Made by a program: the position numbers and the translations under genes. A DNA stretch of 5,340 bases, taken from IMG/VR virus record IMGVR_UViG_2521172589_000005; one strand, given 5' to 3'. Below, piece by piece: positions 1,564 to 3,014 of the stretch; position 1 is the stretch's first letter; every line of letters begins with the position of its first letter. This DNA comes from a virus. Lineage: Duplodnaviria > Heunggongvirae > Uroviricota > Caudoviricetes. The notes below the pieces were generated by a model, which saw only the letters and a list, made by a program, of their open reading frames with translations, ran no database searches and was not told the DNA's origin.

Positions 1564-2068
1564 ACAGGCTCGTGAGGCTCTGGATGCCTGGATATGTCGA
1601 CCAGGAATGACACAGGAGCAGGCGACGATATTAATCACTGAAGCATTCTGGGCTTTGAAAGAGCGCCCGAACATCGATGTTCAGCGTGTCACAGATGAAG
1701 GTGGCGCGGTTGATCAGCGAGCGCTTGGCGTTAATCGAGTGAAGATATTCGAACGCTGGAAGGCTATCGACACCAGGGATAAGCGTGAAAAGTTCACGGC
1801 GCTAGTGCCTGCAATTATGGAGGCTATCCGGATTAATGATTTCAGGTTGTATCGTGAAATTAGTGACGGAAATAGCATCACGTACATGATCGCCGGGTTA
1901 AACAAAGAATATGGCGATGTGGTGGAGTCCGGACTGCTTTTTGCTGATCCTGCCGTAGTGGATCGTGAAACTGACGAACTTATAGAAAAAGCAATTGCTT
2001 TCAAACTTGCGTATCGACAGCAATACCAACAAAAAGCTGGATGGAATTATGAGCCTTCTTTTTGCTGA
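1547..2068 (+). CDS. YdaT-like protein (DUF1019-type, cII-like regulator or putative toxin), 173 aa
   Basis: ATG at 1547 overlaps the dicC stop (1561-1563) by 17 nt. The stretch IFERWKAIDTRDKREKFTALVPAIMEAI resembles the conserved core I recall for Rac prophage YdaT. Gene order repressor / Cro-like / YdaT-like is the known racR-ydaS-ydaT arrangement. Confidence 0.6.
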   Translation: MKITPEQAREALDAWICRPGMTQEQATILITEAFWALKERPNIDVQRVTDEGGAVDQRALGVNRVKIFERWKAIDTRDKREKFTALVPAIMEAIRINDFRLYREISDGNSITYMIAGLNKEYGDVVESGLLFADPAVVDRETDELIEKAIAFKLAYRQQYQQKAGWNYEPSFC

Positions 2069-3014
2069 ACGCCCACTGGTTATAAACACACAGCTTGCGA
2101 TGAAGATTGGCTTAAATGAAGCTATTGTGTTGCAGCAGTTGCATTACTGGTTGAGAGATACCAATTCCGGCATGGAATGTGATGGTGTTCGCTGGATTTA
2201 CAACACAACGGAACAATGGCTGGAACAGTTCCCATTCTGGTCAGAGTCAACGTTAAAGCGCGCGTTTGCAAGTCTGAAAACGCTGGGGCTTTTGCGTTGT
2301 GAAAAGCTCAATAAATCAAAGCGCGATATGACCAATTTCTACACGATTAACTATGGGAGCGAGCTTTTAGATGATGGCAAATTGAGCGAATCCATCGGTT
2401 CAAAATGCGCCGCTCCATCAGGTCAAAATGACACGATGGAAGAGGTCAAAATGAAACGCTCCATTGGTTCAAAACGACCCAATGTCATCGGGTCAAAATG
2501 GCCCGATGATCCTACAGAGAATACAACAGAGATTACTACAGAGAATAAAAACACTTTTCGTCCGGAAGCTTCGCAACCGGACCCGCAGACGGCTGAACAG
2601 GATTTTTTAATCCGGCACCCTGGCGCAGTTGTGTTTAGTGCGAAAAAACGCCAGTGGGGTAGCCAGGAGGATCTGGCGTGTGCGCAGTGGATATGGGGGC
2701 GGATCGTGGGTCTCTACGAACAGGCCGCCAGTGATGATGGCGAGATCATGCGACCAAAAGAGCCTAACTGGACTGTCTGGGCCAATGATGTGCGCACAAT
2801 GCGGATGCTGGATGGCAGAAGCCACAGACAAATTTGTGAAATGTTTGGTCGGGTACAGCGGGATCCATTCTGGGTAAAAAACATCATGAGCCCGTCAAAG
2901 CTCCGCGAAAAATGGGACGAACTGGTCATCCGCCTGGGGCGTTCACCTGTACAGCGTTGTGTTAATCATATTTCTGAACCGGATACAGAAATTCCGCCTG
3001 GTTTCAGAGGATAA
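2049..3014 (+). CDS. Phage replication initiator: lambda-O-like N-terminal domain, repeat-encoded linker, DnaT-like C-terminal domain
   Basis: 339-codon frame opens with TTG at 1995; the first ATG (2049) gives a 321-aa product and overlaps the upstream stop by 20 nt. The N-terminus (SESTLKRAFASLKTLGLLRCEK) has the winged-helix pattern of lambda O-type organisers. The C-terminus ends ...VNHISEPDTEIPPGFRG, closely matching the C-terminal tail of E. coli DnaT as I recall it (...[16 protein letters not shown]). The middle encodes IGSK peptide repeats that are iterons at the DNA level. Confidence 0.8.
   Translation: MSLLFAERPLVINTQLAMKIGLNEAIVLQQLHYWLRDTNSGMECDGVRWIYNTTEQWLEQFPFWSESTLKRAFASLKTLGLLRCEKLNKSKRDMTNFYTINYGSELLDDGKLSESIGSKCAAPSGQNDTMEEVKMKRSIGSKRPNVIGSKWPDDPTENTTEITTENKNTFRPEASQPDPQTAEQDFLIRHPGAVVFSAKKRQWGSQEDLACAQWIWGRIVGLYEQAASDDGEIMRPKEPNWTVWANDVRTMRMLDGRSHRQICEMFGRVQRDPFWVKNIMSPSKLREKWDELVIRLGRSPVQRCVNHISEPDTEIPPGFRG
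2391..2500. repeat. Iteron array: five direct repeats, consensus about TCCATCGGGTCAAAATG, at 22-25 bp spacing, inside the initiator gene (putative prophage ori)
   Basis: Core GGT(T)CAAAA(T/C)G at 2397-2407, 2421-2430, 2444-2453, 2466-2476 and 2491-2500. Four copies carry the extended CCAT(C/T) left arm. Arrangement parallels the lambda ori iterons located within gene O. Confidence 0.7.
2511..2560. repeat. A/T- and purine-rich tract with three ACAGAGA repeats at 12-bp spacing, just right of the iterons (candidate DNA-unwinding element)
   Basis: ACAGAGA at 2514-2520, 2526-2532 and 2538-2544, followed by AATAAAAACACTTTT. Position relative to the iterons mirrors the lambda ori AT-rich region. 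Confidence 0.5.

Follow-up and report, generated by a model that had tools for sequence, protein, structure and literature searches.

In phage lambda, the C-terminal half of the replication initiator O contacts P, and P delivers the helicase DnaB. The replication module of phage LLS is described as a single O homologue with no helicase or loader, and such O-only phages account for 34 of 314 lambdoid phages, their replication being "not yet understood" (PMC12315714). On the host side, the handover from the PriA-PriB-DnaT preprimosome to the DnaB-DnaC complex is stated to be unknown (PMC13377028, PMC11087952). Here we analysed a 5,340-nucleotide stretch of DNA from a Caudoviricetes virus (IMG/VR record IMGVR_UViG_2521172589_000005), the whole of which is called the window below. 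The subject is an open reading frame (ORF) of the window, with an ATG start at 2049 and a TAA stop at 3012-3014, whose 321-aa product is, as judged by its sequence, a lambdoid O-type replication initiator of a prophage with an O-only replication module. The initiator ends in a tail that it shares with the host primosomal protein DnaT. A comparison of loci showed that this GFRG tail is strictly excluded from lambda-P modules and is associated either with orthologues of the helicase loader DnaC or with no loader. The features of the initiator gene are as follows.

2049..3014, + strand: gene for the replication initiator (321 aa), a member of the lambda-O family broadly defined (ORF; phrog_391 "replication initiation O-like", E 3e-92)
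2088..2372, + strand: N-terminal winged-helix domain, residues 14-108, presumed to bind the iterons
2393..2508: iterons in five copies spaced at 23 bp, partly palindromic (consensus about CATCGGGTCAAAATGNCCCGATG), which presumably form the origin (repeat search; spacings 23, 23, 23 and 24)
2512..2550: three A-rich repeats spaced by 12 nt (CTACAGAGAATA...), adjoining the iterons, a candidate unwinding region (repeat search and sequence)
2583..2939, + strand: helical C-terminal domain spanning residues 179-297, a homologue of the C-terminal domain of lambda O
2952..3011, + strand: DnaT-type C-terminal tail, residues 302-321, QRCVNHISEPDTEIPPGFRG, core [IV]PxGFRG-COOH (14/20 identical to DnaT 160-179)

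The gene resembles lambda O in its position after cII and before a ren-like gene, and in the layout of its product, with an N-terminal DNA-binding domain, iterons in the linker-coding sequence and a homologous C-terminal domain (BLASTP E 3e-27 between initiator residues 147-294 and lambda O residues 135-270). It differs from lambda O in having five 23-bp iterons instead of four of 18 bp, in a tail reading ...IPPGFRG instead of ...LDLTNTDWIYGVDL, and in the lack of a P gene next to it. Its N-terminal domain is also not of the Pfam Phage_rep_O type (PF04492), which was unmatched in the initiator while lambda O itself scores E 6e-36. The only Pfam hits of the initiator, Slx4 and YLR146W-A, were both dismissed as sub-threshold noise. 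The nearest structural relatives of the winged helix are initiators. The linker (residues 110-173) is disordered in the AlphaFold model, and the iterons sit in the DNA coding for part of it (residues 115-154). The A-rich repeats at 2512-2550 may serve as the unwinding region, as the AT-rich region does in ori-lambda. The family defined by the lambda-O-type C-terminal domain comprises 2748 clusters at 50% identity (E<=1e-3), including a lambda O fragment (P0256). The initiator is a mosaic: its residues 1-154, which take in the N-terminal domain and the part coded by the iteron DNA, are 75% identical to a protein (L216) that has a different C-terminal domain yet ends in IPPGFRG.

The last 20 residues of the initiator align without gaps to residues 160-179 of DnaT from E. 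coli MG1655, with 18 of the 20 similar, and the stretch lies at the extreme C-terminus of both proteins. This likeness was found by pairwise BLASTP (E 1e-7), by phmmer against the PDB chains 2ru8, 6aep and 9zbt_D (E 0.013-0.039), by hhalign of the last 10 columns (E 8.5e-4), and by the NCBIfam DnaT model (E 0.0057, 16.3 bits), which matched residues 302-321 only, at profile positions 160-179. With 16.3 bits, the initiator is below the 201-bit cut-off of the NCBIfam equivalog PRK02854 for a full-length DnaT. Among 25 DnaT orthologues, I173, P174, G176, F177, R178 and G179 are invariant and position 175 is variable, and phage tails behave alike. The initiator has all six invariant residues (I, P, G, F, R, G) within the longer DnaT pattern RDxNxxSxPDxxIPxGFRG, which in the initiator and E. 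coli DnaT takes the common form RDxNxxSEPDxxIPPGFRG. The differences between the DNA sequences of the initiator tail and of dnaT are mainly at synonymous positions; therefore, the tail has been conserved as a protein by selection, and a recent transfer of DNA from dnaT was rejected on the same ground. Like the DnaT end, which is predicted to be flexible, residues 299-321 of the initiator are disordered in the AlphaFold model (predicted local distance difference test, pLDDT, 42-67).

Unlike DnaT, the initiator has neither the N-terminal domain nor the three-helix domain (PF17948) that binds single-stranded DNA and PriA, and it has a predicted sequence-specific origin-binding domain and iterons. 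The PF17948 model was unmatched in the initiator even at E<=1, whereas two other phage proteins, which do have the domain, match it with E 4e-18 and 4e-14. Initiator residues 185-300 gave no alignment of note with DnaT 84-159 (hhalign E 0.79, probability 0.05%), nor did residues 1-184 with the DnaT family (E 0.19, probability 0.3%), and the N-terminal oligomerisation domain of DnaT (1-62) was not recovered. The linker of the initiator has acidic stretches, and no homology to the DnaT linker was detected. An earlier note, made from the sequence of this DNA, had described the protein as a chimera of an O-like, DNA-binding N-terminus and a DnaT-like C-terminus of about 80 residues and its end. 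Its O-type, predicted origin-binding assignment agrees with the PHROG match, the lambda O homology and the iterons, and its DnaT-like last residues are borne out by the 14/20 identity. The approximately 80 residues before them turned out to be homologous to lambda O 135-270 and not to DnaT. The protein is mosaic, as the L216 comparison indicates. The DnaT-like part is a tail of 17-20 residues and not a domain of about 130. The profile searches that the note had proposed gave an O-like result by PHROG and a match to DnaT in the tail only, with Phage_rep_O and the DnaT domain both negative. Structure prediction of the C-terminal part gave the helical domain and the disordered tail in place of the three-helix domain of DnaT.

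To relate tails to loader genes, two scans were pooled, and GFRG-tailed loci with at least 900 nt of downstream sequence were retained (168 loci, 80 unique by sequence). Loader genes were detected with phmmer seeds within 3 kb downstream, with a Pfam check on representatives. Lambda P came next in none of the 168 loci, a DnaC orthologue in 63 and neither in 105. All 63 DnaC orthologues begin +2 to +6 nt past the stop codon of the initiator. By contrast, P was next in 9/9 initiators with a WNxxEAW or NTDW tail (Fisher p 1.6e-12, unique set). The representative downstream genes matched IstB_IS21/Bac_DnaA (DnaC-like) and Phage_lambda_P (P), and other Pfam identities found downstream were DUF1627, Dam, PerC, D12 methylase and ParB-HTH. 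In the reciprocal test, each of the 32 genes that lie upstream of a P-like gene had a WN-type tail, with at least two scaffolds represented. GFRG tails occurred on 74 of 75 genes upstream of phage dnaC-like genes, these loci being nearly identical and of little independent weight. Over their full length, the DnaC-like proteins of phages share 48-49% identity with E. coli DnaC, and the host dnaT-dnaC operon, with a gap of 2 nt, has the same layout as the tail-dnaC pairs of phages.

The same pattern appeared in a species-wide scan for PDxxIPxGFRG-TAA, in which one genome was taken for each of 185,579 species. The 117 matches were essentially confined to Enterobacterales and consisted of 77 dnaT genes and about 40 prophage initiators; dnaC was next in 72 of the 77 dnaT matches, and P was next in none of the 117. 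Four oddly titled records among them encode enterobacterial DnaT or the prophage protein of the window, the mis-titled Chryseobacterium and Vagococcus records being of the DnaT kind. Close relatives of the initiator can be placed on either side of the divide. A protein 75% identical to it, in the same cI/cro/ydaT context (P0034), has the WN-type end ...DWNSADGWEDVL, with P next to it and DUF977 after P. Another, 93% identical and with the same tail (L102), is followed by DnaC-like, DUF1627 and DUF977 genes. O genes of such siblings (93% identical) exist both with and without the DnaC cassette.

As tail class, not scaffold, predicts the loader gene, the tails would be partner-specifying elements. 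The phage dnaC is facultative; therefore, the partner in the phage of the window would be the host DnaB-DnaC. Extrapolating from lambda, the N-terminal winged helix may bind the five 23-bp iterons inside its own coding sequence, and initiator oligomers may then open the adjacent A-rich DNA. The flexible [IV]PxGFRG-COOH tail shared with DnaT would take the place of the lambda O-P contact and recruit the host DnaB-DnaC complex, most likely via DnaC. The phage would thus need no loader of its own and would bypass PriA, PriB and DnaT. That the tail recruits host DnaB-DnaC in this manner, replacing the O-P contact, is our preferred reading, held at about even odds, the binding partner being suggested by gene neighbourhood.

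The tail is that of DnaT, and DnaT is a component of the preprimosome. The tail might thus bind PriA and/or PriB or co-assemble with DnaT, and DnaB would then be loaded via PriA-PriB-DnaT-DnaC, the route of the restart primosome and the one put forward in the earlier note. No phage loader was found, the linker of the initiator is partly acidic like the PriB-binding linker of DnaT, and the O-only phage LLS depends on host recombination functions that feed PriA-dependent restart (PMC12315714), all of which fit such a route. However, in the cryo-electron microscopy (cryo-EM) model of the preprimosome, the DnaT unit set against PriA was fitted from 4OU7 (residues 84-153), according to the Methods, and the PriB contact is in the acidic linker of DnaT at Asp66/Asp70, not in the tail. 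The tail of DnaT is therefore free of modelled contacts; the texts of the cryo-EM papers name no DnaT residues at the PriA interface. The initiator has neither this three-helix unit nor DnaT's N-terminal domain. None of the portions of DnaT that touch PriA is found in it, which makes direct recruitment more likely than passage through PriA/PriB/DnaT. The route also leaves the exclusion of the tail from P-type modules and its adjacency to DnaC orthologues unexplained. We consider it unlikely, and the claim of the earlier note on helicase recruitment is not favoured by these data, the tail tracking a DnaC orthologue or no loader. This association points to direct use of DnaB-DnaC by an initiator that stands in for DnaT rather than one that recruits DnaT.

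The co-occurrence data would fit equally well if the tail bound DnaB itself, as domain I of DnaA does, with host or phage DnaC merely keeping the ring open. Both P-less classes still need host DnaB, and the core of the motif is invariant across three types of phage DnaC-like proteins (246, 248 and 249 aa) and host DnaC, suggesting a very conserved partner. However, P-type phages use DnaB too, yet never have the GFRG tail, and tail genes and dnaC-type genes are only 2-6 nt apart in both host and phages. Direct binding to DnaB is thus improbable in our view, and DnaC or the DnaB-DnaC complex is retained as the preferred partner.

The [IV]PxGFRG tail was found on at least eight unrelated scaffolds of enterobacterial phage initiators, in addition to DnaT. 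These scaffolds include the lambda-O-type C-terminal domain, Phg_2220_C, DUF1376 (YdaU of Rac), Phage_rep_O, PF17948 proteins and several without a Pfam match. A scan of IMG/VR DNA by a degenerate pattern (IPxGFRG and a TAA stop) gave 95 ORFs, of which only 12 had the lambda-O-type C-terminal domain. Conversely, among 149 cluster representatives with the lambda-O-type domain, the domain was followed by ...[IV]PxGFRG (21), by ...(H/E/D)WN(S/T)xExWxxxL, by the ...NTDWxxG(V/L).. of lambda, by ...RHGxxVPxxEVxL or by others. A non-lambda-O scaffold of the Phg_2220_C type (...W(D/E)KxGRPxxxNGxW...; L220-L251, L127, L152, L216 and the LLS O protein at L335:34213-35067) carries either tail class, P being next when the tail is WN-type and no P being present when it is GFRG. 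Therefore, the tail has been swapped independently of the preceding domain. The comparison also shows that phage initiators are assembled from three parts, each exchangeable without the others: an origin-binding domain together with its iterons, a C-terminal domain, and the tail as the putative determinant of the partner.

The distribution of the tail also bears on the possibility that it is a self-association element that aids oligomerisation on the iterons, while another part of the protein recruits the helicase. Initiators must oligomerise, and removal of the 18-residue C-terminal region of DnaT reportedly turns the trimer into a dimer (PMC5314882, summarising Szymanski et al. 2013). Nevertheless, the scaffolds that bear the tail, at least eight and unrelated, have no docking domain in common, and self-association alone does not predict exclusion from P-type modules. 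We regard this explanation as quite unlikely.

Several side observations concern these tails. Further tails after the lambda-O-type domain were seen in L040 and L071, L018 and L116, L058 and several P01xx representatives. Among the tail types, ...IP(D/E)GAFDDDD has an acidic end like the SSB tail and no loader within 1.6-1.8 kb, ...QDYxxGVGADG(S/T)F is followed by a 274-aa DnaC/IstB-like gene, ...QQPVEIWA has a DnaB_C helicase-like gene downstream, and ...RHG(I/V)xVPxxEVxL is one more class after the lambda-O-type domain. A genuine PF17948 three-helix domain together with the tail is present in other phage initiators, namely the 271-aa ORFs of L160, L170, L176, L191 and L204 and a 276-aa ORF of L129. 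These proteins have a different N-terminal domain (DUF1376 in L129) and represent, in other phages, the architecture that had been imagined for the window. No DnaC-like gene comes next to the 271-aa type.

Tail and neighbourhood also link the initiator to the YdaU-YdaV modules of Rac. The 285-aa YdaU-type proteins end in ...RQVNTVSLPDSAIPPGFRG, which is the same tail, and are followed by DnaC-like, DUF1627 (ydaW) and DUF977 (lygF) genes, exactly the cassette found in siblings of the initiator. Unlike the initiator, YdaU has a DUF1376 scaffold that is not lambda-O-like, and the window has no DnaC-like and DUF1627 genes.

The phage of the window appears to encode no helicase loader. No DnaC, P or DnaB homologue was found in the window by tblastn, the next gene being DUF977. 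No DnaC, lambda-P or DnaB homologue was found by six-frame searches in the complete 45-kb genome of phage HannyBb, whose initiator is 95.6% identical to that of the window over the C-terminal domain and tail. Phage mEp460_ev081 is likewise O-only between its O-like gene and Q. The LLS (HER 843) "O family protein" is, like the initiator, a lone O homologue with no helicase or loader and a GFRG tail (...VDTKIPEGFRG), while its N-terminal domain and its C-terminal domain, of the Phg_2220_C type, differ from those of the initiator. The earlier note was therefore right that a phage-encoded loader is lacking, as shown by HannyBb and by the recognition of O-only modules as a class (PMC12315714). It was also right that the 140-aa product of the next gene is not a loader: this is a DUF977/Ren-like protein with no P-loop in its sequence (3055-3477). 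DUF977 was considered as a cryptic loader and rejected, because it also follows P-type (L004) and DnaC-type modules; since it follows all three module types, it is not a substitute for a loader. The position of lambda ren is occupied by DUF977 (LygF, "Ren-like") in P-type, DnaC-type and O-only modules alike (window 3055-3477, L004, L015 and others), and DnaC-type modules have a further gene, DUF1627 (ydaW-like), between the dnaC-like gene and DUF977.

An O gene without a loader could also be the remnant of a prophage that decayed after losing its loader, the resemblance of the tail to DnaT then having no functional meaning. Some siblings have the cassette of DnaC-like and DUF1627 genes and others lack it, and many of the matches are prophages. 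However, HannyBb and LLS are complete phages isolated on E. coli and are O-only, the class comprises 34/314 of lambdoid phages, about a tenth (PMC12315714), and the tail has been kept through synonymous change and across scaffolds. Decay is therefore very improbable.

Recruitment of host DnaB-DnaC by the tail has to be weighed against several points. The 168 loci are not phylogenetically independent, many being near-identical prophages. No loader gene was present in 105 of them, so that the link to DnaC consists of 63 loci and the dnaT-dnaC operon. Detection with phmmer seeds within 3 kb could miss a loader of an unrecognised type, and a ...DGSF tail class likewise precedes a DnaC-like gene. 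From the literature, the authors of the cryo-EM study propose DnaT's N-terminal domain, not the tail, as the recruiter of DnaB-DnaC, and the DnaT tail is reportedly needed for trimerisation of DnaT, as the summary of Szymanski et al. (2013) in PMC5314882 has it. In addition, DopC, a protein with a "DnaT_C motif", is paired with the P-like DopE (PMC5509034).

A broader reading, which we put forward tentatively and think somewhat less likely to be right than wrong, is that [IV]PxGFRG-COOH is the missing DnaB-DnaC recruiter of DnaT and docks, as a short linear motif, on DnaC or DnaB-DnaC. Enterobacterial phages would have moved the motif onto at least eight scaffolds, or else DnaT would have received it from an "initiator-dnaC" operon of phage origin at the time of the domestication of dnaC. 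Tails would then form a "loader code", with GFRG for the DnaC type and WNxxEAW or NTDW for lambda P. The dnaC1331 mutation (A84Y) is reported to block only the PriA/PriB pathway (PMC11087952). As a separate observation, its site A84 lies in GQxxALSxA(K/R), which is conserved in E. coli DnaC and in the phage DnaC-like proteins encoded after GFRG-tailed initiators. It is pure speculation that the A84 region is a docking surface for the tail.

Much of what surrounds the initiator is already known. The family is common and annotated, its DnaT-like end has been caught by automatic annotation, and an O/DnaT chimera has been published. The last is DopC (Brezellec et al. 2017, PMC5509034), which like the initiator combines an O-like N-terminal helix-turn-helix with a "DnaT C-terminal motif" (HHpred to 2ru8_A). 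By its published description, DopC is, unlike the initiator, encoded by a domesticated chromosomal gene of Cellvibrionales and Oceanospirillales, paired with the P-like DopE and without the lambda-O C-terminal domain and iterons. Homologues of the initiator number 4266 in enterobacterial prophages, and most of them, in Escherichia, Citrobacter and Salmonella, bear the name "hypothetical protein"; labels in phage records are "DNA replication protein O", "replication initiation O-like protein" and "Primosomal protein I" (RAST). Exact 321-aa homologues are known (P0001, P0005), and coding sequences of 966 nt are annotated in HannyBb and mEp460_ev081. The string "PPGFRG" was not found in the literature searched, and the searched passages of PMC12315714 do not mention the tail, the word "DnaT" being absent from that paper. 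In the same literature, we found no recognition that the similarity lies in a distinct, portable tail that excludes lambda P and is excluded by it, adjoins DnaC orthologues or no loader, is confined to the DnaT/DnaC clade and is present on O-only phages.

No other part of DnaT has been copied by phages onto initiators that work with a DnaC-type loader or without a loader, and O-only phages carry it. Two open questions, the replication of O-only phages and the handover from the preprimosome, can be tested directly with one small peptide. The loader code, if true, would explain O-only lambdoid replication using only host DnaB-DnaC. If the tail is the adaptor, its small size makes it convenient to mutate, to use in peptide-binding work and structure prediction, and perhaps to target for inhibiting restart. 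If it serves only oligomerisation, the gene codes for a mosaic O-like initiator of the ordinary sort.

The window as a whole corresponds to the region for immunity and replication in an enterobacterial prophage of the lambdoid (Rac / CP-933O-like) kind, and near-identical DNA is contained in the Escherichia phages PhiR42_1, HannyBb and mEp460_ev081. Its other features are listed below.

524-733, - strand: small ORF, Pfam DUF1391 (E 2e-27)
848..1255, - strand: CI-type repressor (Pfam HTH_3, E 1.5e-14)
1333..1563, + strand: Cro-like regulator (Pfam P22_Cro, E 2.7e-11)
1547..2068, + strand: cII-like / YdaT-family gene (Pfam YdaT_toxin, E 7e-6; phrog_163 "CII-like transcriptional activator", E 4e-40)
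3055..3477, + strand: DUF977 / Ren-like (LygF) gene, 140 aa (Pfam DUF977, E 1.2e-29; phrog_142 "Ren-like exclusion protein", E 5e-48)
3985-4122, + strand: small ORF, Pfam DUF7167 (E 2e-10)
5087-5261, + strand: sok antitoxin RNA (full-length Rfam match, 107.8 bits; gathering score 59)

The cII-like / YdaT-family gene overlaps the start of the initiator gene by 20 nt. The remaining small ORFs between 3474 and 4998 had no Pfam matches. The sok match indicates a toxin-antitoxin locus of the hok/sok type (mokW/hokW-like) downstream of the replication genes, and such a locus is likewise annotated in mEp460_ev081 and HannyBb. Finally, a 4997-bp contig titled "MAG: Bacillota bacterium" (L394; MAG, metagenome-assembled genome) apparently encodes the initiator protein, with 40 N-terminal and 45 C-terminal residues matching a 339-aa, TTG-start reading of the window ORF. 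The contig most likely comes from an E. coli prophage and was wrongly binned into a Bacillota MAG.

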